This document shows, piece after piece, positions 5,690-59,521 of a stretch of DNA of 64,000 nt. Position 1 is the stretch's first letter; the number at the start of each line of letters is the position of its first letter. The stretch is from Octopus vulgaris (taxonomy: Eukaryota). The stretch spans positions 24,738,001-24,802,000 of the forward strand of contig OX597820.1 in assembly GCA_951406725.2 (NCBI GenBank). The letters run 5' to 3'. A program made the position numbers and the translations under genes. The notes beneath the pieces are model-generated. The model was not told the origin of the DNA. It saw only the letters and a list, made by a program, of their open reading frames with translations, and did no database searches.

Positions 5690-6399
5690 GATGTATATAT
5701 ATATATATGTATTAACGTATACATATATATGTATATATATATATATATATATTGTGCTTATATATACGTATATGTGTTTATACATACATATATATACAGA
5801 CTTGCGTGTGTTTTAGTGTAAGATATTTATATTGCACAGGATAATGTTTCTCCATATAGACATCCTGACCTGCAGCCTTACATACACAAACACATACACA
5901 CATACACACACACACAGGTATGTATACATATATACACATACATACATGCATACATACATAGATACATACATAGATACATACATATATACACCCGCACATC
6001 CGTTATAGCGTGTCTGTGTGTACATGTGATGTGAGTGCGTATATACAGGTGCATATATGAGCACATATAAATGCATTAGAATAAGAAAATTCTTGTCTAC
6101 ATTCGAATGTATGTTTTCTGCATTTATGCATCGGAGTTGTGTATGATTTAATCTATATATTTTTGCGCATGTCTGTGAATGTGTGTGTGTGTGTTTGTGT
6201 GCATGTGTGTGTGTTTGTGTGCATGTGTTTGTGTATATACATACTCATGTATCCGCCCATTGGCTAGAACTACTAGAAGATATGTACACTAGAGTGTTAC
6301 ATATACACATACAATCACACCTACACACATATAGACATGCATAGCTGTATATATGTATATGTATGAGTGGAGGTGACCGATTATACATATGTATGTATA

Positions 6400-6800
6400 C
6401 GAGGTTCGGCTGAAAAGTTCATAGGCCGACCAAGATATTCTTCTGGAATATGACCACATGAGCTTTATTTTTCAACGTAGAACCCTTGCAGCCCCCACAC
6501 GTCTTCCATCGATGATTCAGTGCTTAGATCCCATTGGCAAATAAGCTTTCATCCTGTTAGCCAAAATCTCATGATATGACGTCGTCATCACTGCGATACT
6601 GGTCTCCAGTAAAGTGGGGTTTTTTTCATGTTAAGGAACAGATGATAGTCAGATGGGGCAAAATCAAGGGAATATGGTCGGCGATCAAGCAGTTCAAAGC
6701 CAAATTCACAACTAGAAAACGAAGGGCTTGTCTGCTAGATCATTGTCCGGATGAAACAAAACCCCTTTCGTCAGTTCTTCTGGGCGTTTTTTCTTGATAC
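6400..6800 (-). mobile_element. Mariner-like transposon relic (3' end of transposase plus TIR)
   Basis: TIR-like ta|cgaggttcggctgaaaagttcatagg. The minus strand holds decayed HDN..P.SPD.AP.DYHLF-type sequence. Homologous to 43378-43830. Confidence 0.75.
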
Positions 6801-6936
6801 GCTTTCGTGTCTGCCTCCGCTGATTGGGATGTCTTTTGGGATTCCTTTTGTCGTTTGCATCCCCCGGCAAATGAAAGGACCTTGGCCTACTTTGGAGCAG
6901 GTGAGGAGGGATTTTCCCACTGCATGTATTGTCTCT

Positions 6937-7016
<80 letters not shown>

Positions 7017-7031
7017 AAGAAGAAGAAGAAG

Positions 7032-7518
7032 AAAAGGTCACAGAAAACGAGAAAGCAACCATATTATGTGATATGCCAATACACACAGATAGAGAAATTA
7101 AGGCCAATAGGCCAGATATAGTTGTCAGAGATCATGAAGAAAAAAATGCTTTCTAACTGATGTATCAATACCAGCAGATGACAACGTATCTCTAAAAGAA
7201 ATAGAGAAACTTTCAAAATACAAAGACCTGAAAATGGAGGTAACTCAAATGTGGAATCTAAAAACAGAAACAATTCCTATCATAGTGGGCGCATTAGGTA
7301 TGATAAAGAAATATTCAGACAAATACATAACAAAAACATCAGGACTTACAAATATATATAACATACAGAAAATTGCACTACTGGTCACTACACACATCCT
7401 ACGCAAAAAAAATTCAATACAGTAACCATAAGAGCATCACAGCAAACTACAACACATACCCAACGCACACGGAGCTGCGCTCGGTAGTGAAGTGAAACAC
7501 GTTATAAAAATAAAACTA

Positions 7519-7522
<4 letters not shown>
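7032..7522 (+). mobile_element. 3' end of an RLE-type non-LTR retrotransposon (R4/Dong-like) inserted in (TAA)n
   Basis: Reads ENEKATILCDMPIHTDREIKANRPDIVVRD..., LSKYKDLKMEVTQMWNLKTETIPIIVGALG, IQKIALLVTTHILRK (PD-(D/E)xK restriction-like endonuclease). Flanked by (TAA)n/(GAA)n on the left and (TAA)n on the right. Confidence 0.85.
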
Positions 7523-7596
<74 letters not shown>

Positions 7597-7649
7597 CATC
7601 GGCAAGAAATGGAAGCAAATTTGAAAGAAGAAGAAAACCCATAATAATA

Positions 7650-7855
7650 ATGGTTTCAAATTTTGGCACAAGACCAGCAATTATGGGGGAGGGTGCTTGT
7701 CGATTAAATGAACTTCCAGTGTACGACTGGTACTTAATTTATTGACCCCAAGATGAAAGTCGACGTCGGCGGAATTTGAACTCAAGACATGCAGACAGAC
7801 GAAATGCCGCTGAGCATTTTGCACGGCGTGCTTACGATTCGGTCATCTCACCGTT
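7650..7855 (-). mobile_element. SINE family B (ggcgagctggcagaa head), degenerate
   Basis: Reverse-complement similarity to the copy at 10199-10430. Confidence 0.7.
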
Positions 7856-7881
7856 TTAGAATAATAATACGGGTTTTACCA

Positions 7882-8143
7882 ATGATGATGATGCAGACAA
7901 CGATGATGATGATGCTGATGATGATGATGAAGACAACGATGATGATGATGAAAATAATAATAATATTAATAATAATAATAATAATAATGATGATAATATT
8001 AATAATAATAATAATAATAATGATGATAATATTAATAATAATAATAATAATAATGATGATAATAATAATAATAATAATAATAATATTAATAATAATAATA
8101 ATAATAATGATGATAATATTAATAATAATAATAATAATAATGA

Positions 8144-8210
<67 letters not shown>

Positions 8211-8215
8211 GAATG

Positions 8216-8247
<32 letters not shown>

Positions 8248-8298
8248 CCTTTCTATTATGGGCACGAGGCCTAGAATTTGGGAGAGTGGATAGTCAAC

Positions 8299-8358
<60 letters not shown>

Positions 8359-8390
8359 GTGGTGATGATGAAGATAATGATGGTAATGAT
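7882..8390. repeat. Compound (ATG)n/(TAA)n microsatellite
   Basis: Seen directly. Confidence 0.95.
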
Positions 8391-9046
8391 GAAGATATAC
8401 TTAAATAAATAAAATTATGCTGTCTGCATTAGTTTATGCAGATATCTAGAAGAACATTGAATGAATTAGATTCCCTGATCTTGTTACGTTTGAAGAGATA
8501 CCTATCTCATCATATAATTGCATAATGTGCACAAGTGAATAAGCCATTGATAAACTTCATATTTCTACACAATTATATGTACATATATATATATATATAT
8601 ATACATATTAAGAGGAAAGGGCGAAAAGGGTGAAGAGAAAGAGAAAGACAGACAGAGAAACAGGTGTATGTGTACGAGTCTCAGTGTCTATGACTGTGTC
8701 TATCTCTCCTCTCTTTCTCTCACTCTCTCTCTCTCTCCCATTTATAATCATTCTCTCTCAATCTGTGTGTGCGTTTGTGTGTCTCTGTCTCTGTGTACGT
8801 AACGTATAATTATTCAAAGCCATTTTCTTTTTCTTTTGAAAACATGGTTGAACAAACAAAGATGTGGTCTGACGAAAAGTTGCTTTTTGTTTTCCTTACA
8901 ACAAAAATGTTACTAGTAATCACGATAGATGATCTCGAAACCGTAAATTCATTTTACTCTACCTCTTTCTCTTTTCCCCGCACCATTTATGCATATAAAT
9001 GTTTGTAAATGTTTGTGTATATATATACATATATACATACATACAT

Positions 9047-9092
<46 letters not shown>

Positions 9093-9173
9093 ACATGTAC
9101 ACACACACACATATATATATAAATATATACATATATAAATATATATACATACATAAATATAAAAATATAAACG

Positions 9174-9209
<36 letters not shown>

Positions 9210-9281
9210 TGTATATATGTGTGTAAATATATATAGGTATAAATACATATATATGTGTATGTATGTATTTATGTATGTATG

Positions 9282-9312
<31 letters not shown>

Positions 9313-9825
9313 ACTATACACACTCTTACACAATGTCTGAATTGCCGAGTGAGTCGATGGAGTTAATGGAATAAAATACTTTAACATGTCAAAGTGTATT
9401 AAAAGCAACAGTAATTTTCCCATATTTTCTTTTTCTGATTTAATTAACTTCAGTTGCTCTTGGTGTTGTTGTTGTTGTTGTTGTTGTTGTTGCTGTTGAT
9501 GTTGTTGTTTGATTAAGTGTACGTGGCGCTACGGGGAAGTAGACATATTTTCCATCTTTCGCCTTTTGTTTTTGATAAATTATCGATAAATTTGATGTCG
9601 ATATGGGTATCAAGGTTACTATCTTAATTATTTGGAAATCTATTTGATACTTTCAGATCAAGTACACCGTCATCATCATCGTCTTCTATCTCCTCCTTCT
9701 TTTCATCATGATCATCGTCATCGTCCTCTTGAAGCATATATATATATACATACAAACCATACAAACATATATGTGCTTACATACATAGATACATTCATAC
9801 ATACATACATACATACATACATACA

Positions 9826-9901
<76 letters not shown>

Positions 9902-10148
9902 TAGGTAAATGAATTATCCTATGTTTATCGTCAGCATGGAAAATTCATTATCGCTTTGTTTACCATGTAGGCAATCATCGAAATTTTTGTTTGTCTTGTT
10001 GTCGAGAGAGGCTCCCTTTCTTTCCTGATGAGAAGATTGCATAATGCACCCTTTATTCCTATGGAATAAAAACATGCTGTCTTCGAAACATATGTCGAGA
10101 GTAAATGAATTTTGTTAACATCTTCGTTCGACTCCATTCTTTCATTTA

Positions 10149-10197
<49 letters not shown>

Positions 10198-10198
10198 A

Positions 10199-10426
10199 AA
10201 GGCGGCGAGCTGGCAGAAACGTTAGCACTCCGGGTGAAATGCGTAGCCGTATTTCGTCTGCCGTTACGTTCTGAGTTCAAGTTCCGTCGAGGTCGACTTT
10301 GCCTTTCATCCTTTCGGGGTCGATAAATATAAGTACCAGTTACGCACTGGGATCGATGTAATCGACTTAATCCGTTTGTCTGTCCTTGTTTGACCCTCTG
10401 TGTTTAGCCCCTTGTGGGTAGTAAAG

Positions 10427-10430
<4 letters not shown>
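10199..10430 (+). mobile_element. SINE family B, near full-length
   Basis: Head ggcggcgagctggcagaaacgttagca (A-box-like), gagttcaagttcc (B-box-like), conserved core gaggtcgactttgcctttcatcctttcggggtcgataaa. Inserted in (TA)n. Confidence 0.85.
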
Positions 10431-10462
<32 letters not shown>

Positions 10463-10469
<7 letters not shown>

Positions 10470-10775
10470 TAAATTAGAGATAAAACCACTATTAGGCAAA
10501 TCAAACAATGAAAAACTTAAGCCAATACATAAAATTAATTAATTTATATTATTTTAAATATACAAACGTATTAAAAGTTTAATAAAAGATAATGAGTAAA
10601 ACACTACGATCGTTTCATGGCTGTCCAATTCGTAATAATTCGAGTTATGGTTACAGTCAATCTTCAGGTAATTGAAATATTTATCTTAGCGAGGTTTACT
10701 ATAAAATTGGATTCAATCCTAAATCTGATTTTTCCCTGTAAGTTTGGATTTATTCCCTAATATTTTATTATTAAT
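10463..10775 (-). mobile_element. Non-coding hammerhead-bearing (Penelope pLTR-like) element next to (TA)n
   Basis: Contains the hammerhead at 10602-10670. Both ends match segments of 52738-52875, one directly and one inverted. Confidence 0.7.
10602..10670 (-). ncRNA. Minimal type I hammerhead ribozyme motif
   Basis: Minus strand: tac CTGAAGA ttgactgt...acagccat GAAA cgatcg TA gtg. Helix II is tgactgt/acagcca with one mismatch, helix III is replaced by palindromic cgatcg, and helix I is short. Confidence 0.65.
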
Positions 10776-10904
10776 TTATATAATTTAAGATGCAGAAATA
10801 GAAAGTGACTGTAACTTCGAAGTCTCGCTGGGCACGCCCTTTAAACGAGGAAATAGCGAAGTTACGGACATGATATGTATATATATATAAATATATATAT
10901 ATAT

Positions 10905-11090
10905 ACCATGCTGGGACATTACGCTGAAATACTTTAGACGCACGAATCCACCCAGTACTTATTTTTTTACGTCCGGTACTTGTTTATCAGTGTCTTTTGC
11001 CGAACCGAGAGGTTACGGAACGTAAATAAACCCAAAACCAGTCGTCATATGGTGATGGAGGACACACACATACACACACGTGCGCACACA
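10905..11090 (-). mobile_element. SINE family A fragment
   Basis: Degenerate match to the family A body (ttttgccgaacc...gttacgg.acgtaaa). Confidence 0.65.
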
Positions 11091-11108
11091 CAATCGCACA
11101 TACACACA

Positions 11109-11149
<41 letters not shown>

Positions 11150-11153
<4 letters not shown>

Positions 11154-12463
11154 ATAAATGGTGGGGTTGTGTTGACCGCACGTGGAGAAATGATAAGTAA
11201 GGAAAAATTTTTTTAAAAATGCAGAATGCTCAAATGAAAGAAAATTTTAATAAAATGAGAAGTTGATAAAATATATAAATATATATTTATTCAACCGGTT
11301 TTCGTCATTGTATGACTTGTCAAGAATATTTATGTTTTAAGAAGTTTTTTTAAAAATTAGAAAGGGGAAAAAAAGAAAAAGAAAATTGCATTGTTTTTTG
11401 TAAAAGAATAATGATAAAAATGTACAAAAATTAAAAAATAAGTTCTCCGATACATTGTGAGTTCGTTGTGTATCTTGAGTTTTATGGTTGTTTACGAAAA
11501 AATTTCCTTGAGGTGTTAAGATCCAAAGGGATTAAGAGCATGTGTTGTGTTGTGTTGTTAAATTCAGCATGTTTGCAGGACAGGAAGTAGTAGTAATTGT
11601 GGTCCTGGTTCTTCAGTTCCTGTGTTGTGAGTAAGGGGAGACAACTCTTTTGAGTTCTTCAATAAAACCCAAATTATAAAACTATCATTTTAGCTTCATT
11701 TGCATTATCTTTTTTATATAATTGCTTGTTAACTTAACTTTCAGATTTTAACACTTTATTTATATTATTTTCTAATAATATAAATCTGCATAGACAATTG
11801 CATTTCAAATTGTCATATCATTTATAATAAAAATGATAGTAATAACAACAATAGTAAAAATGATATTTAAAGAATATAAGTTTTAGCTTGAAGTGATGAA
11901 TGCATGGTATCTTTATATATTTGTGTTAGTCCATCCATGAAGAGTGAGGTAGAGAAAGGAAGTTTGATCAACGAGGAGTTTGCATATTAAGTTGTGTTTG
12001 GAATTTTTCAATAAAGAGATTCTCCTTGTTAATTCTCTCCTGTGTGGTGATCCCGTCTTTACATTGGTAGAAGGGGAATATATAGAATTTGGGGTTTAAG
12101 TCTTTAGCACATGAGTCTAAGTGGTCACTCAGTGGAATTTGTCGGTATTCCGGGAGATTTATTTGTTCTTTATGCACCGTTACTCGTTTACGTAACGGGA
12201 GACTCGTTTGTCCAACATAATTATGTTGGCAACCAGCGCATGTGAGAACGTAGATAAGGTTCTCGGAGGAACAGGAGAAGTTAGTCTTGATTTTAAACTT
12301 CGTACCTTGTTTGAAGGTAAATTCAGAGCCTTCAAGTAGAAAGGGGCAGGTTCCACAGTTTGAGCGTGCACATTTTTTTACTGTTGGGGGTGGATGTGGT
12401 GTGTGAAGTTTGGCATTTGTCAAGAGTTTTTTTAAAGATTTGTGTTGCATTTTGCATTTGAGG

Positions 12464-12466
<3 letters not shown>
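11150..12466 (-). mobile_element. 5'-truncated Penelope-like retroelement: uninterrupted GIY-YIG endonuclease C-terminus (12466-11968) plus 3' UTR/pLTR
   Basis: ORF reads KKCARSNCGTCPFL...FSCSSENLIYVLTCAGCQHNYVGQTSLPLRKRVTVHKEQ...ERINKENLFIEKFQTQLN (Zn-knuckle plus GIY-YIG of PLEs). (TA)n on both sides. A variant hammerhead-like motif lies at 11291-11325. Confidence 0.92.
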
Positions 12467-12536
<70 letters not shown>

Positions 12537-12539
12537 TAT

Positions 12540-12692
12540 ACAATGGGTTTCATTTAGTTTCTGTCTACCAAAACCACGTACGAGGCTTTGATCAACCTGA
12601 GGCTATAGCAGAAGACACTTGTTCAAGGTGTCACACAGTGGGACTGAAGCCGAAACTATGTGACTGAGAGGCAAGCTTCTTATCCCAGTCAC
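12540..12692 (-). mobile_element. SINE family A head fragment
   Basis: tttctgtctaccaaa...ggctatagcagaagacacttg...cagtgggactgaa matches family A. Confidence 0.75.
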
Positions 12693-12724
12693 TTCTATAT
12701 ATATATATATTCGTTAGAGAGTGG

Positions 12725-13085
12725 CGTTATTTTATCTACTCCGGAAGGATGAAAGATAAAGTCAACCTCGGCGAAATTTGAACACAGAACCTAAAAACGG
12801 ACGAAATGCCGCTAAACAGTTGGCCTGGTGTTCTAACAATTGTGCCAGCTCGCCGCTTTCGTTGCACTTATGAATTTCGTTTCTACTATAGGCACTGAAA
12901 TTTGGGATGAAGGGTCTAGTTGATGATCTCAGTAATTGACATGAACTGATTACATAGACCTCGGATGAATGACATGCAAAGACGATCTCGACGGAATTTG
13001 AGCTCAAAATGTAAACACGGACGAAATTCAGCTAAGCAATTTGCCTGGTGTACTAACGATTCTGTCACCTCGCTGCTTTCGCTGC
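12725..13085 (-). mobile_element. Two adjacent SINE family B fragments
   Basis: Repeated ctcg.cg.aatttga.c.ca.aa...acggacgaaat...ctaa.ca.tt.gcctggtg segments at about 12760-12860 and 12985-13080. Confidence 0.7.
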
Positions 13086-13471
13086 TCTTATAAATATAAT
13101 ATAAAATACATCGGTGTGTGATTTTATGCATATATAATCATTCGGATATATTTGTATTTCTGACTCAACGCCCAACTCACTTTAACTTCAAATACTTATA
13201 TTTCATATGTTGTCTACATTGTCTATCTCACTCTTTAACTATTGAAACTGAGCCAATTGCTTCACTTTTCTACTTAATATTTGAATATATATGCAGCATT
13301 GAAACTATGAAGATATATTTTTTTTTACTAGTTTCAATTGACTTTTATATCATTGTTGATTTTCTTTCTCTCTCGCTTTCATTTCTTTCTCACTCCAATA
13401 TTTTTCAATACAATATTTTTCGCAATATTTTTCAGCAGCTTGCTTTTACAGTATTCTTTAGCGTCGATACA

Positions 13472-13556
<85 letters not shown>

Positions 13557-13716
13557 CGAGTATAACTAGCCGAAACTGCTAAGATAATGTGGTACTCGAC
13601 TGAGGATAGAAAGTTCAGAATGACCCGTCCTTGTTTTTTCCTGTCCATTATTTGTATCACCTAACTGTCCGGATGTTTTGTTGTCTCCTGTTAGGTTCTT
13701 TTTCCATTTTTTGTTT

Positions 13717-13784
<68 letters not shown>

Positions 13785-13859
13785 ACACACACACACACAT
13801 ACACACACACACACACACACACGCACACACATACATGAAATATCACTAACATCTCATTT

Positions 13860-14480
13860 TAACAAATATACTTAGAAAAACTACATAAAAATATCTTGAA
13901 ATACTAAAGAGTAAGTATATTCAATAAAATCACCATTGGCTTCAACTACGGCTTCCAAATGACTTTAGAATCTCCTGCGACTCTTCTGGATGGTCTCCTT
14001 GTTTAAGTTGGCATGGTGCAGGGTCTTGTTGCCAGACATGAGGTCTTCTAGCAACCACTCTCTAGACCGAGGGCTGCGCTATCTCTTTAAGGCACTTGAT
14101 GTAGGCCTCCGTGCAGTGTCTGAGTGGTAGAATGAATGGAGGCATAACGTCGCTATCACTAGTGGTCACTCAAAACACCATGATGTTAACTGGATGCTTG
14201 ATTATTATCACTCTCGGTACATGTCCTTAGGTTGCACTTCCTCAGATTGATACCCAGACACTCTGAAATGTTCGCATTGGAGCTTCTGTCGTGAATGCCA
14301 AGCAGTACAGCATGTCGTTTCCAAAGTTTGGTGGAGAGAATTACGTCATGGTGCTGTTTTCCTCAGAGACGGTGCTCATCTAACCCTACTATACTGCGTA
14401 GTCGACAAAACCGAAAGCAAACAAGGCGCATGCGCGAAATAAAAAATACAAAATGGCGACAATTTAGCCTTTGCACCCTG
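13860..14480 (-). mobile_element. Tc1/mariner-family relic, same family as 4010-4680
   Basis: Ends in aaatggcgacaattt...caccctg|ta (TIR plus TA). Internal sequence is reverse-complement similar to 4010-4680. Confidence 0.8.
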
Positions 14481-14858
14481 TATATATATATGAAGATCGT
14501 AGGACATTCACAAACCATAGGCTCATAGGCCGGTTTCCCGGATACTATGGCGAATATTTGTTCCCCCCTCACTCATTGTTGCCAGCAGAATGGACAAACA
14601 GGAAGTTAGTGCATTTCTCGGGTACATAACGTATCACCAGGTCCTGAGAGCACAACCTTATGATTTAGTGCAGAATCCTAGCACTAAACCGCTCACATCC
14701 ACATAAATACACAAACACAAATATACACATGTAAGTCTGTACGTATGTGTATGTATATATAATTGTGCTCTTCTTTAATAGTGCCATGGTTATTTTCATG
14801 CTATCATGTGTACCAGACTCTTTCGTCCTTCTATAAGTCTCTTTCTCTATCTCCTAGT

Positions 14859-14908
<50 letters not shown>

Positions 14909-15214
14909 TACATATATACATATACATATACTTACATACACAGACACGCAACACAGACATATTTTTTACGGATATGTTTTTCTCCATCCGATAACTCAAA
15001 AACCATCATATAATACTACACAATAAAGTTCTTTATTCATCATAATTTAATTGAAATAGTATAATGTAGTTGGAACAATTGACAACAAGCGAAGTGCAGA
15101 TTCAATGCTATTTTGACCAATATTTTTTGACCATTAAATTAATTTCACAAAGTAACAGAGAACGGGGAAGAATAAAGTGATAAAATATTTTTCCTTTTTC
15201 TTTCCGATTGTTGG

Positions 15215-15965
<751 letters not shown>

Positions 15966-16218
15966 GGGTAAATTTCCCCCACCGCAATGTTTATAGGTTG
16001 CATTCGACGCCTGTATTGAAAGTACTTCTCTTTAATCTATAATCATCAGATGTGGTATGCTTTTTCTTTTACGTCTGCAACAGACGTTTTTGGTTAATCG
16101 CTTTCCTCACTACAGGGAAAAAAAACTGCTGCAACACAAGGCATGTTTGAGGGCGTGTGTGTGGTTTAACTAGCACGTGTTTCTGTCTTCATAAAGGCTT
16201 TTTTCGATATGTATACAG

Positions 16219-16262
<44 letters not shown>

Positions 16263-16312
16263 CATTATTATGAATAATTATAATCGTTATTAAAAAATTA
16301 AAATTTATTTTG

Positions 16313-16406
<94 letters not shown>

Positions 16407-16654
16407 TCATTATTACCACCATCACCATTTTTATTAGCATCTTCCAATTCTGTTTCCATTTTTTGTCGAGTGTCTTCCTGACACCTAGGGCAGAGAAACG
16501 TACTGTATGCATTGATAGGCCATTAAAACATGTTCACCAGATTGTTCATTTACAGAGTCATGTGATAGAGAAAAACAAGATAGAGAGAAAAAAGGAAAAA
16601 TAAAAAATAGAAAAGTAAACAAATAAAATAAAGAGGGGAAAAATAAAATTTACA

Positions 16655-17045
16655 GCGACAATGCTCTTCTCAATATGTGTGACGTACCAGTTAAGACAAT
16701 CTTTTGCACTTCTTGCATGGATGGTTAGCCAGAGTCATTCTTTAATAATTTTCAGTTCCTTTTTGTATCATTCTAAGTGCTTCTGCCATCATTGGTATTG
16801 TAATCGTCTTGAGATGCCACATCTTTTCGATTTCGATTAGCAGATCTTTATATTTTCTGAGCTTGTCAAATTCTTTTGCCGAGATATTATGGTCACAGGG
16901 TATTCTCATGTCAATCAATATACAGACTTGATTGCTTTTATCTTCCACAACAATATCTGGTTTATTTGCCTTGATGGTCCGATCTGTACATACTGGCAAG
17001 TCCAAAAGAATAGTTACATTTACTCCCTCAGTTACAGCCTCAGGT
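16655..17045 (-). mobile_element. 3' end of a second R4/Dong-like RLE non-LTR retrotransposon
   Basis: Reads DLPVCTDRTIKANKPDIVVEDKSNQVCILIDMRIPCDHNISAKEFDKLRKYKDLLIEIEKMWHLKT, then VQKIVLTGTSHILRRALS. Homologous to 7032-7522. Confidence 0.85.
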
Positions 17046-21285: not shown

Positions 21286-21969
21286 TATAACTTTTTTCTT
21301 CTGATGTAGACGTTGATCTTTCGGAATAATAGTTATGTTAAGAAATTTTGAACCTTAGGTTGGTAAATCATGGACTCGTTGGTCGGATCATTTGTCCTGT
21401 TGTCATCCTTCTGTATAAAGATGCTTAAGTGGTCGCTGAACCATTTGAGAGTTGTTTAAGTCTCTTTCAGTTACAGAAAACATTTGAGACTGCGCTAAGG
21501 ATATGGATACGTATTAGGATATTTATCCAAAAGTTTGGAACATTATTTGAACTTCTAGATAAGATTTTATGATTTGGACATTTTTTGGACATTTTTATGT
21601 CTAATGATCCAGTGACTCTCAATGCGCTTTCTTTAAGCATTTTCATTTCAGTTGAGGTTGTTGTTGCTGTTTGGTCTCTATTATATGCTGTAGGAGTTTA
21701 TTGAGAACCATAAAATTCATAATTTCTTTTGAAATTGTATAATTTTCCGGAACATTTGTCATTTGAATTGATGTAAAAGTCCATAAAAGTCCAGCACATT
21801 GGTATCATTTATTGAAACTGTAATCTTCAGAAAATTTATTTTGAGGTGTTTATTTTCTAGAAATAACTGTAGTCATTATTTTCATCACGAAGAATTCACT
21901 GCAATTTGGTAACGATTGTCGCTTTTTAGCACTCTTTGATTTTAGGAATGAGTTTCATATATATATATA

Positions 21970-22815
21970 TTAAATTAATAATAGAAGGGTAAAATTTATC
22001 AATTAAATTAATTAATTAACAATTTTACCAAGTAGATCGGTGCGTTAAAATAACATTTATAGGTAAAATTATCCACGTAATTATAATTAGAGTTCAGCTA
22101 ACTGCTTCATCACACACCGAAATTAGAAATAGGAGTTAAAAATTCCCTTTCTGCTACTATACGAATCACCGTGAGATTCGTATGGAGATTCGTATTGTAG
22201 CAGAAAGTGAAATTTTAACTCCTATTTCTAATTTCGGTATGTGGTGAAGCAGTTAACTGAACTCTAATTATAATTATGTGGATAACTTTACCTATAACTG
22301 TTATTTTAACGTACCGATCTACTTGGAAAAATTGTTAATTAATTAAATAATTAATTAAACTAATTAATAAATTTTACCCTTCTATTATTAATTTAAAATT
22401 ATAATTTACTCCATGATAGAATACTGCGGTTTTTCTGCGGTATTGCTCGTAGCATACACGTGGGTATAGAGTTTGAATAGTATGTAATATTCGACTGTGT
22501 AAATTTTGGAAGTGTTGGTTGGATATCTGTTACTTGATGACGCTCGATTGCGTGCATATTCAGTCATAGCACTTTCAAATTTTATTAAAATTGGAAATAT
22601 TATACTGAAGAGAGAAGTAAGTAAAATTTAAATTACTTTAATCTCGAAACGCGTATATAATTAATCCTGGTCGTATTGATTCATTGTTTTTTTCTCTTTC
22701 CTTCTTAAAAAAGTATGTTTACCGTTATGGAGATTCGTATAGTAGCAGAAAGGGAATTTTTAACTCCTATTTCTAATTTCGCTATGTGGTGAAGCAGCTA
22801 GCTGAACCCTAATTA

Positions 22816-22822
<7 letters not shown>
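21970..22822 (+). mobile_element. Hammerhead-bearing retrozyme-like / non-autonomous Penelope-like element (inverted arm + 545-nt unit + partial tandem copy) in (TA)n
   Basis: 21970-22167 is the reverse complement of about 22186-22396. 22181-22277 recurs directly at 22726-22822 (offset 545). Hammerhead at 22599-22661. (TA)n on both sides and no ORF. Confidence 0.85.
22599..22661 (+). ncRNA. Type I hammerhead ribozyme motif with a full catalytic core
   Basis: attata CTGAAGA gaga-agtaa...ttact-ttaa-tctc GAAA cgcg TA tataat. Helix I is attata/tataat, helix II is gaga/tctc plus agtaa/ttact, and palindromic ACGCGT replaces helix III. Predicted cut after GUA (22655). Confidence 0.85.
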
Positions 22823-26610: not shown

Positions 26611-26793
26611 TACGCAAATGTGTGTGTGTGTGTGTGTGTGTGTATACAAACAAAATTTTTTTTCATATATACAAACATAAATATATATATATAAATATAA
26701 CATACATACATGCACGCATACATACCTTGTGTTACATAGGAATTAACTGTTTCAGTCTAATGTACTAATACTTTTTTCTCTTCTATTTTGTAG

Positions 26794-27826
26794 AGAACTG
26801 AGGCTGAGCCTTGAATCCAGTGGAGAAATACTGGATTATACCCAAGACAGCAGCAATTATACTTTCCAAATATTAAATTTAGTCAAAGACCTAAAAGGGA
26901 CAAAAATATGGAAATTTGTTGGAGCAGTCGATAATTTCTATGTAAATTTAAGCACGGTGGCTGAACTTCCGGGTCGGCGGGAGAATGCTACGCACCGTTT
27001 TCGCAAACTTTATAGCATCATTACCAAAGTTTCACCACCATTTATCATGCAAAAAGAGGCCTTTTCCGAAGATGGTGACTGCTATTCGTACGTGCCATGT
27101 GTTCAGGTAGCCAATGAAAGTGATGTTGATAATGCATTCGAAGACTACTTGCTTACTAATCGATACGATCATGACAAATTCAGTGTTTCTTGCTGCACAG
27201 GAGTGACCATAGATATCTTGGTCAAACTGGCGACGGACATGGAATTTGATTTCATCCTCTTCTTTCTCAAAGAACCTTTCGATGGAAACTACACGTATGA
27301 TTCAGGAAGTTGGAATGACACGTTAATGTACCTGGAAGATGACAGAGTCGATATAGTGGCAGGGCCGCTCAGTATAACAGTAGAACGGGTAAGGTATATC
27401 ACATTCACTGAGGTGTATTTTTACACTGGCTTCTCCATGATTACCATGAAGCGAGAGCGTGAAACTTCCATGGACGCCTTTCTAATGCCTTTTTCCGTGG
27501 AGGTATGGATCGGCATAGCGATAAGTGCCACAGTTACTGCCGTAGCAACATCATTGTTCGAGTGGAACAGTCCATTTGGACTCAACCCTAAGGGGAGAAA
27601 ACGGGAGCGCAACTATACCCTTGGTTCAGCACTCACTATGGTTTATTCAGTGCTTTTTGGTCATATTGTGCGCACCAAATCCCCTAAAAGTTGGCCAGGA
27701 AAAGTACTTCAGAACTTCTGGGCAGGTCTTGCAATTTTTATGATTGCAAGTTACACTGCTAATTTAGCTGCATACCTGGCAGGCCGCTCCGAGCAGTCGG
27801 ATTTACTAAACATAAATGACGAACGG
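26794..27826 (+). CDS. GRIN3A: Internal coding exon of an ionotropic glutamate receptor, NMDA GluN3-like (end of ATD, S1, M1, M2 pore loop, M3)
   Basis: Acceptor ttttttctcttctattttgtag| at 26793 and donor gaacgg|gtaagt at 27827. The frame is open from ELRLSLESSGE... to ...DLLNINDER. Motifs include CCTGVTIDIL, GSWND, AGPLSITVER, TEVYFYTGFS, FEWNSPFGLNPKGR, LFGHIVRTKSPKSWPGKVLQNFWA and SYTANLAAY. These match the recalled GluN3A-type pattern (FEWKSPFG..PKGR, LFGRT..IKPPKCWTG, TYTANLAA). The symbol marks the class, not proven one-to-one orthology. Confidence 0.95.
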
Positions 27827-28524
27827 GTAAGTAACTTTTTATACTTTCTATGTCTCTCAACCATACTCCATAAAAACTAAAAAAAAAAAAGCTTCCACAT
27901 ATTCACCAGCTTCTGTAAAAAAAAATTCTATACTCTCTTCTCCAATCTAAAATGTCCCATCACAGACTATTTTTGAACTTCATTTTCTCACTGTGAATTT
28001 AATACCTATAAATACAAAGGTTTCAAAGCTCCATATTACTCATCTGGATTCATAAATTTTAAATAGTTTTACCGTTTCTATCGATATTCTTTAATTTTTG
28101 TATCTGCATGTGGTAGGATCTGAAGAAAGTCATGGCCATTTCAATGTGTACATTTCTTATTAAATACCATCCCTCCACTTAACAACAAGAAAACGCGAAT
28201 AAAGCACTCGAGATATAACGAAATAAACAAGTAAACAGATAAACACTCTCACTTCTGGTCCATAGGTCTGCTGTCTTCTCTCTATGCATTTTCTTTGGGT
28301 GGAGGTGGCTCTTCACCCCTCGTAGTCCTCATCTCGCACCCTCTCATCACCCTTGTTGTGTACAACCCATCAGGCTTCCACAGTAATTAACATGTCCATT
28401 CTTTTTTTCCGTTTCCACAACACTGATGCTCTTGAATTCCCTCGCCTGCATATACCTTTCTCGGGGATATTGACTCACGAAGTTCTCAAACTCACCGAAC
28501 TACGAAAGCCTTCAAAGGGCACAT

Positions 28525-57363: not shown

Positions 57364-57672
57364 ACACGCGCTCTTACACACATGCGTACGTGCAATTATT
57401 TGCATCCGTACACACGCGTATATAAATATACATATACACATACTGTTTTAACTGAAGAAAATGTGTTAGAGATAAATTCCTTGTTTAAATCTGCCTAGGG
57501 ATTAAAACTTGTGTATGCATGTATGTATGGTATGTGTGTATGTATGTATGTACGTATGTATGTATGTATGTATGTATGTATGTATGTATGTATGTATGTA
57601 TGTATGTATGTATGTATGTATGTATGTATGTATGTATGTATGTGTTCATGTTTGAATCTTTATATATATGTA

Positions 57673-57750
57673 TATATCCGCTGATGAGAACTTCGCCTGG
57701 CAAATTATTTTACTTGATAATTAAAGTTCGAAACCGGAGGTCCAGATGTA
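57673..57750 (+). ncRNA. Type I hammerhead ribozyme motif (copy 1)
   Basis: tatatccg CTGATGA gaactt...aagttc GAAA cc-gga-gg TC cagatgta. Helix II is gaactt/aagttc, helix III is cc/gg, and helix I has one mismatch. GUC cut site after 57742. Confidence 0.8.
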
Positions 57751-58126
57751 AAACATGGTAAATGTTTTTATTTTTTATTTCCTTCGAAATTGCTTTTAAC
57801 TGTGATGTGGACTTTTTGACTGTTCTTTCTAGTATGATAGGCAACCTGTTAAGACTCGCTTCTTTGTGTTTAAATGTACACAATTTTTATATGAAAAATA
57901 TGTCTATTGACTTTGTATACATACTAGGCCACTGGTAGAAGAAACTTCTACAATTTCCCCTACCCTATATCCATTTTAAGAAATGATATTAGCAATTTCT
58001 GAAGTTTAATCAGAATTTTTATTTGCTGCCGATTCAATCTGCGCTTGCGCGGATGATTCGAAAAATTATAACATATAAGGATGGACACGTGTTATTTGGT
58101 CTCTAATTTATATGTTAATGTTTTGG

Positions 58127-58204
58127 CGTATCAGCTGATGAGAACATCACCATGCCAATTATTTTATTTGCTAATTAAGGTTCGAAACCTGAGGTCCGGC
58201 TGTA
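58127..58204 (+). ncRNA. Type I hammerhead ribozyme motif (copy 2)
   Basis: cag CTGATGA gaac...gttc GAAA cc-tga-gg TC cggctgta. The core is intact but helix I is degenerate. GUC site after 58196. Confidence 0.7.
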
Positions 58205-58617
58205 AAACATGGTGAATATTATTTTTCATTCCCTGCGAAATTGCTCTTAAGTGTGGTTTGGACATTTTGACTGCTCTTTCTAGTATGTTAGGCAACCTGT
58301 TAAGGCTCGCATCTTTGTGTTTAAATGTACACTAATTTATATATTCATATACATGCATATATATATATATATATATATATATGCATGTATATGAATATAT
58401 AAATGCATATATATATATATATATATTACATTATATAAGGGCTTAGTAAAATAAATTACTTTGCCACATACTGAACTCATTAGAAATAGCAGCTAAAAAA
58501 ATTTTTTTAACTATTTCTAATACTTAAAGAAAATCTCTCTCATATAGTGTTTGCTCAAGTCAACTCACGAAGGTATGGGGGTAAAAACATTAAAAAGTCA
58601 CAAATGCAAAGGTTATT

Positions 58618-58669
58618 TGAGAACGTACGTTTCTAGATTAGTCAAATCGACATTTCTTTCGTCAGCTCA
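58618..58669 (-). ncRNA. Minimal type I hammerhead ribozyme motif
   Basis: Minus strand: tgag CTGACGA a-aga-aat-gtc-gattt-gac-taa-tct-a GAAA cgtacg TT ctca. Helix I is tgag/ctca, the helix III stub is palindromic (aacgtacgtt), and the site is GUU. Confidence 0.78.
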
Positions 58670-59175
58670 GAACTCCTTGATTCGGATTTGGGAACACTGA
58701 AAGTGGGAGCATACCCTTTTGGCTTCTTATCACTTCCGGAGATCTGCTCGAACTATCAGTGCTACCAAATTCAAAATATGCAAGCGAAGAATTTCTGCTC
58801 TCCCCTTTCCACCAGCGTGGGTTAAAATTGGTAAACACTATGTTTTATCGGTACAAACCGAAGCATTAAATAGAGAGAAATGAATTATAATTTCAACAAT
58901 TGAGGGTAAAATTAATTAATTATTAATCGATTTCACCAAGTATTCAGTATGTAAAGGGACCATTTAAGGCGAATTCAAATTATTACATTATATAAGGGCT
59001 TAGTAAAATAAATTACTTTGCCACATACTGAACTCATTAGAAATAGCAGCTAAAAAAAATTTTTTTAACTATTTCTAATACTTAAAGAAAATCTCTCTCA
59101 TATAGTGTTTGCTCAAGTCAACTCACGAAGGTATGGGGGTAAAAACATTAAAAAGTCACAAATGCAAAGGTTATT

Positions 59176-59227
59176 TGAGAACGTACGTTTCTAGATTAGT
59201 CAAATCGACATTTCTTTCGTCAGCTCA
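59176..59227 (-). ncRNA. Minimal type I hammerhead ribozyme motif (identical second copy)
   Basis: Identical to 58618-58669, offset 558. Confidence 0.78.
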
Positions 59228-59398
59228 GAACTCCTTGATTCGGATTTGGGAACACTGAAAGTGGGAGCATACCCTTTTGGCTTCTTATCTAAGCCCTTAT
59301 ATAATGTAATAATTTGAATTCGCCTTAAATGGTCCCTTTACATACTGAATACTTGGTGAAATTGATTAATAATTAATTAATTTTACCCTCAATTGTTG

Positions 59399-59441
<43 letters not shown>

Positions 59442-59454
59442 TTCTATCTATCTA

Positions 59455-59521
<67 letters not shown>

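Follow-up and report, generated by a model that had tools for sequence, protein, structure and literature searches.

A recent copy of a non-coding hammerhead family in Octopus vulgaris with a Penelope-type insertion footprint

The element at positions 58424–59406 of the window, i.e. of the 64,000-nt stretch that was analyzed (Octopus vulgaris, assembly GCA_951406725.2, contig OX597820.1, positions 24,738,001–24,802,000), is most probably a recent copy of a non-coding hammerhead family which has units of 545–560 nt and two fixed ends in (TA)n, and which likely represents a non-LTR retrozyme served in trans by a Penelope-like enzyme. Several features of retrozymes were found: a short non-coding tandem unit, a type I hammerhead in every unit, a stable self-paired monomer, and dispersed young copies. 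Judged by those features that can be tested on sequence, the element is a metazoan non-LTR retrozyme with the insertion footprint of Penelope; its kind, the animal non-LTR retrozyme, is already in print (PMC7229834; bioRxiv 10.64898/2026.07.22.740005).

The element consists of two arms which are joined back to back. The main arm (58424–59289, minus strand) is a partial tandem of 1.55 units; its 3′ end is at a fixed site (site A, position 58424), where it enters (TA)n, and it is 5′-truncated at 59289. The second arm (59289–59406, plus strand) comprises 118 nt and ends, again in (TA)n, at another fixed site, which is located 95 nt into the next unit (site B, the tail end). The upstream partial copy within the main arm (58981–59289, minus strand) resembles a pseudo-LTR and is identical to 58424–58731 at 308 of 309 positions, the exception being a single extra A in an A run, so that the spacing is 557 and then 558; the near-perfect partial tandem of the preliminary description is thus confirmed. 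The inverted arm matches 58886–59003 as reverse complement at 117 of 118 positions. The target is represented by a (TA)n-rich left flank (58340–58423) and a (TA)n right flank (59403–59515). As had been noted initially, both sides are (TA)n and the element has no ORF of note: its longest Met-initiated frame has 41 aa, and the RT plus GIY-YIG ORF of autonomous Penelope-like elements (PLEs) is absent from it. The longest non-repetitive frame of the window has 377 aa (26747–27877, plus strand) and is possibly a host exon.

The left flank is itself at the end of an older hammerhead dimer (57660–58340, plus strand), in the (TA)n of which the studied element is inserted. This dimer has a different unit (spacing 451–454, 84%–88% identity); its hammerhead motifs, at 57681 and 58135, read CUGAUGA...GAAAC...GUC, and their helix II starts with G-C.

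The two identical minus-strand hammerhead cores described initially were recovered 558 nt apart (TGAG-CUGACGA-helix II-GAAA-CGUACG-UU-CUCA, starting at 59223 and 58665). They are part of type I motifs at 59176–59227 (upstream copy, minus strand) and 58618–58669 (downstream copy, minus strand), the latter with helix I UGAG/CUCA, core CUGACGA...GAAA, and a GUU triplet. The cuts predicted after GUU (59180/59179 and 58622/58621) would release a monomer of 558 nt (58622–59179, minus strand), which is predicted to fold as a branched rod (−141.6 kcal/mol; z = −4.56; none of 100 shuffled sequences does as well). A type I hammerhead descriptor detected five sites in the window, including the two of the element, and none in 100 locally shuffled windows. 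Another well-formed type I motif, with a long helix II and a GUC triplet, is located at 10025 (plus strand). An Rfam scan over 57660–59400 gave no hammerhead match at E ≤ 10; the matches obtained were microsatellite-driven miRNA hits and were set aside.

The sequence of the core is as initially described, but a peculiarity had been overlooked. Canonical type I hammerheads have a Watson–Crick pair (usually G-C) at the first position of helix II (10.1/11.1), whereas the element has an A·A mismatch there (58658/58634). When the sampled motifs were counted as variant by locus, with overlapping loci included, A·A was found 94 times, U·U 84 times, U-A seven times, G-C four times, and other combinations six times. 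G-C is confined to one sister group, U·U occurs in most relatives of the A·A lineage to which the window belongs, and U-A or A-U in a few. A·A is also found in a distant sister family, where helix II shows covariation (AGA/UCU to GGA/UCC); other sister families show covariation of helix I (UGAG/CUCA, UGUG/CACA, UAUG/CAUA). Recent decay was considered and ruled out, as A·A marks whole subfamilies that are up to 8% apart, including the copies nearest to the window, and recurs in the distant sister family. This recurrence, together with the covariation in sister families, argues that the mismatch is a tolerated trait rather than decay. Because A·A replaces G-C at the start of helix II, cutting by the predicted ribozyme may be slow.

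The motif also has a helix III, of 2 bp with a GUAC tetraloop, rather than none. In the monomer, the pairing probability of helix III is about 0.01. The proposed action of a palindromic helix III as a dimer is backed by the ACGUACGU duplex, which is predicted to be stable at −9.8 kcal/mol, but it does not extend to several sister families, in which loop 3 is non-palindromic. Dimer cleavage of the element is plausible on the basis of this prediction. When the whole element is folded, helix I of the upstream hammerhead has a probability of 0.01 (0.10 without the inverted arm). The upstream motif is thus predicted to be mostly misfolded, so that this locus may be a poor donor.

A first-look similarity search of the genome (2.8 Gb, 227 contigs) returned 1,670 candidates, 40 of which were scored. 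Exact matches to the ribozyme patterns number about 2,000 altogether, 366 to the 22-mer of the A variant and 1,609 to the 18-mer of the U variant, a ratio which is approximate because the patterns differ in length; the reversed control patterns gave 0 and 1 matches, respectively. Family tandems reach six units. The 97 loci with a full unit form 12 clusters at 4% distance, and the widest pair is 16% apart. Nearest-neighbor divergence has a median of 1.1% among these full units and is 0.9% for the copy in the window; being low across 12 clusters, it indicates that several subfamilies were recently active. The initial characterization as a young, multi-copy, non-coding element with hammerheads is supported by these numbers.

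The stretch is contained in contigs from runs labeled with four organism codes. It is covered by contigs of four runs guessed to be RNA and of three of unknown kind, from which transcription, strand and ends are not readable, and the joined form exists in DNA anyway.

The insertion footprint was analyzed for 132 insertions, comprising the 40 most window-like ones, 43 from the first 100 listed matches of the A variant, and 49 from the first 100 listed matches of the U variant. Rows were dropped for duplicates (L012, L013, L023, L025, L029), overlapping U-variant loci, an incomplete sequence (L167), and extra neighboring insertions (in L015, L179, L218, L232). The outer ends of the insertions are at two fixed points about 100 nt apart: site A at unit position ~549–557 (58424 in the window) and site B at position 95 of the next unit (58886 and 59406 in the window). 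B ends were binned at 88–120, as permissive scoring overshoots to ~114 whereas default scoring places them at 91–95. Back-to-back insertions account for 95 of the 132, and 89 of these combine A with B (A+A 0, B+B 0, one irregular end 6), whereas free choice of ends would yield A+B in about half. The remaining 37 insertions are single-armed (end A 21, end B 15, irregular 1). The family thus has two ends which are used as an A+B pair. A ends enter (TA)n in 97 of 103 cases; the commonest B flanks are likewise (TA)n. The inner 5′ ends are scattered all around the unit.

Two-armed A+B loci also bear on how the second arm arose. Neither arm is contained in the other at 28 of 80 such loci, which requires two primings on RNA, since copying by fold-back cannot account for these loci. 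Near-mirror 5′ ends were found at 14 of 80 junctions (5.9 expected), and fold-back may have occurred in some insertions. Loci with more than two arms were excluded from the counts of 5′ stops and arm lengths. The A+B footprint corresponds to the anatomy of Penelope, so that the 118-nt arm of the window is best read as a B-primed cDNA. The inverted arm is thus present as initially described, but not as a terminal inverted repeat: it is likely a second, separately primed cDNA which ends at the tail site. The proposed link to retrozymes or non-autonomous PLEs is partly supported by this footprint in 89 of the 95 back-to-back insertions.

The ribozyme core and the RNA fold are under selection. All 11 core nucleotides of the hammerhead are present and show no shared variants across the 132 loci; the 3′ half of the core is biased by the search pattern, and the 5′ half is free of this bias. 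Among columns of the core and helix I outside the search patterns, 0 of 14 have shared variants, compared to 156 of 513 elsewhere (p = 0.007), and the free position N7 has three alleles (C, U, or A). The contig variant table was left aside as a test of the core, as N7, a position known to vary, is missing from it just as the core positions are. With the structure taken from the window's own unit, pairing is kept in 57 of 89 pair types for shared variants (at least three loci), compared to 45 of 156 for singletons (p = 1e-7). The whole 52-nt motif is not depleted in a shared-to-singleton test (p = 0.32), because loop 2 and position 10.1/11.1 vary.

Conservation is highest around sites A and B (17 of 155 columns with shared variants vs. 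139 of 358). This region forms a structured end module across the unit junction (58886–59050, minus strand), in which site A is in the loop of a long stem and a second hairpin precedes site B. When 16 end modules were aligned, 97.8% of the cells pair, with two-sided changes in 4 of 34 pairs (27 of 500 shuffles reach four). Sister families whose units are of about the same size also have the module (1,488 matches to a pattern built to exclude the subfamily of the window). It is likely the region for recognition and priming by the RT. A distant member of the superfamily, with back-to-back arms, the same end module, a unit of ~545 nt, and a hammerhead motif at 22605, is found in the window at 21968–22820.

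As to the template, arms cross the cut site in 238 passages and stop there five times (200 arms), a passage count which is inflated because loci were chosen for having a ribozyme; 174 of the 200 arms pass the first cut site upstream of their own priming site. This argues that a cleaved linear monomer is not the usual template, which is likely either a circle or an uncut multimer. The five stops represent a weak excess (1.9 expected, p = 0.04) with other clusters being as large, and two exact-site junctions are alignment overshoots. Enrichment of 5′ stops near the cut site was discarded as an indicator, since it depends on the interval chosen around the site (p from 0.025 to 0.89). Arms have a median length of one unit, exceed one unit in 106 of 200 cases, and reach 3,406 nt.

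There are 37 locus-private variants which every overlapping copy within an insertion has in common (27 of them across both arms) and 154 which occur in one copy only, with "private" being judged on 132 loci of a larger family. The window has one which is shared, at 58597 and, in the upstream partial copy, at 59155. The shared private variants favor repeated copying of one RNA.

The strongest alternative retains a Penelope-type insertion but uses as template an uncut linear multimer, or monomers chained by template jumps; the hammerhead would be slow or serve another step, and a circle would not be involved. We consider this a possible but less probable scenario. The passages across the cut site suit an uncut RNA as well as a circle, the A·A or U·U mismatch suggests weak cleavage, and RNA that had not been processed was the main substrate of the anole enzyme in vitro (PMC11167929). 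Divergence within an insertion (0.7%–0.8%) and to the nearest other locus (0.8%–0.9%) is also close, which suits this scenario; the values are too close to discriminate between templates and were rejected for this purpose. However, homogeneous arrays of five to six units recur in different subfamilies despite the median arm of one unit, whereas linear inheritance would shorten arrays and leave mutations specific to a unit. The private variants common to all tandem copies and the selection on the ribozyme core speak against a linear multimer as well.

A second alternative concerns the autonomous partner: the unit might be only the pseudo-LTR (pLTR) or the 3′ end of an autonomous PLE which was not sampled. 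Vertebrate retrozymes do resemble PLE pLTRs (bioRxiv 10.64898/2026.07.22.740005), and each of our three PLE searches scored the best 150 of 6,136–16,658 candidates. Within that sample (113 PLE loci from about six families), no autonomous element was found that has the end module as part of its own sequence or that shares the 3′ end or pLTR. Beyond site B, the sequence runs on into the same unit in the 132 insertions, and no arm enters an ORF-bearing region. The tandem spacing of 545–560 nt also speaks against this alternative, which is further weakened by head-to-tail tandems of 558 nt. We thus consider it unlikely. Unit-like matches beside PLE genes (L038, L057, L093, L259, L258/L271) were examined as partners and rejected, since these were sister elements that had inserted separately, in or close to (TA)n. 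In the region of L258:1500 (minus strand), the A end of a sister retrozyme is almost directly joined, in the same orientation, to a 5′-truncated copy of another PLE family (full frames ~727 aa). This joint is ambiguous: it may reflect a template switch, which would name the partner, or a nested insertion.

An autonomous element of the same genome, which codes for a 781-aa RT/GIY-YIG protein (L108), shows the A+B and (TA)n pattern with a tail of roughly 35 nt. In this young element (L109:2-1417 and L108), an open frame of at least 472 aa without a Pfam hit overlaps from upstream, and a hammerhead core of the U3-A8 type is present near the 3′ end. In a different autonomous PLE family (L091, L078), hammerhead helix II likewise begins with U·U. 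In the window, a fragment at 11971–12549 (minus strand) resembles, as judged by eye, the zinc-finger and GIY-YIG end of the 781-aa Penelope-like protein family. The authors of the O. vulgaris repeat paper counted 31 Penelope-like families with recent activity, and the words "ribozyme," "hammerhead," and "retrozyme" are absent from its main text.

An origin at the DNA level, i.e. a MITE-like element with terminal inverted repeats, a local tandem duplication, or an assembly artefact, is superficially suggested by the inverted terminal arm with TA flanks and by the near-identity of the two copies, with locus-specific junctions resting on assembled sequence, but is hardly credible given that the same architecture occurs at 89 loci, that the outer ends are fixed yet asymmetric with variable inner junctions and thus unlike symmetric terminal inverted repeats, that the unit-to-unit joint is also present in contigs of independent runs, and that there is selection on RNA structure.

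The insertion by a Penelope-like enzyme is consistent with published data on PLEs. Their anatomy has been described as a partial tandem with an inverted truncated arm and a tail of 30–40 bp, often at one end only (PMC8557442). EN+ PLEs (Craig et al., 2021, PMC8557442; Frangieh et al., 2024, PMC11167929) share with the octopus element the partial tandem, the inverted upstream arm, two 3′ ends, AT-rich targets, and internal RT starts in a stem-loop region; the tail of Penelope was defined in vitro by two internal RT start sites (PMC11167929). Unlike EN+ PLEs, the family lacks an ORF, and its tail, which is likewise at one end only, has about 100 nt instead of 30–40 bp. Both end sites of the family are AU-rich and target-like, whereas the start sites in anole lack homology to the cut DNA (PMC11167929). 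In vitro, Penelope insertion was unaffected by hammerhead mutants, and the anole ribozyme required protein but was dispensable for insertion (PMC11167929). The minimal hammerheads of PLEs (Cervera and de la Peña, 2014, PMC4209133) are similar in their short helix I, long helix II, palindromic loop 3 that permits dimers, and low expected activity, but have a highly conserved G10.1-C11.1 pair, which is missing in the element, and the element has a real helix III of 2 bp.

Metazoan non-LTR retrozymes (Cervera and de la Peña, 2020, PMC7229834) also are non-coding tandems of low GC with one type I hammerhead per unit and a strongly folded monomer. Like the element, HHR_Amex2 from axolotl combines a tetraloop-capped helix III of 2 bp with a mismatched first position of helix II (U·U there, A·A in the lineage of the window); its monomer showed 22% cleavage in 1 h and cleaved better as a dimer (PMC7229834). 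The units of the octopus family (545–560 nt) are longer than those in coral, mussel, and axolotl (225–390 nt). For those retrozymes circles have been demonstrated, whereas for the present family they are predicted; an analysis of insertion sites or ends is not contained in the passages of PMC7229834 available to us. Vertebrate retrozymes (Li, Clavereau, Pollet, 2026, bioRxiv 10.64898/2026.07.22.740005) occur as dimers and multimers of hammerhead units (51–972 bp) that co-occur with PLEs, and one of nine Xenopus dimers cleaved in vitro. Their tie to PLEs is pLTR similarity; here it is the insertion footprint, with no pLTR homologue among the 113 PLE loci. As far as the sections seen of that preprint report, it covers 35 species without a mollusc and ascribes tandems partly to local amplification. 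The preliminary description knew of no account of this family; we found no paper on cephalopod retrozymes, as judged by title or abstract start, but the kind as such had been published (PMC7229834).

In our preferred reading, a retrozyme mobilized in trans by a Penelope-like enzyme, the tandem copy would be transcribed, and its hammerheads would cut slowly, perhaps as dimers, to yield the 558-nt monomer, which would, on balance, be ligated into a circle. Both strands of a TA run would be nicked by a GIY-YIG endonuclease. Each of the two 3′ ends would then prime reverse transcription on the same RNA, one using site A and the other site B within the folded end module. The two cDNAs would extend 5′-ward beyond the ribozyme, terminate at random, and become joined back to back. 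In the window, the cDNA from site A would have 866 nt and that from site B 118 nt.

Taking these observations jointly, we tentatively suggest, as a speculative extension, an old retrozyme superfamily (545–563 nt) without sequence kinship to an autonomous pLTR, whose conserved RNA handle of several helices would offer two priming sites which resemble the target and are 100 nt apart. With a single RNA circle as template, a dimeric Penelope enzyme would prime from the two nicked strands, and selection would have kept the base of helix II unpaired as a brake on self-cutting of the circle.

The family bears on how animal retrozymes are mobilized and on how the tandem, inverted, and tail structures of PLEs form. 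A short defined RNA with two mapped putative priming sites and a covarying end module could be used in the existing in vitro Penelope assay, for which the natural variants at one ribozyme position (A·A, U·U, U-A, G-C) provide ready material.
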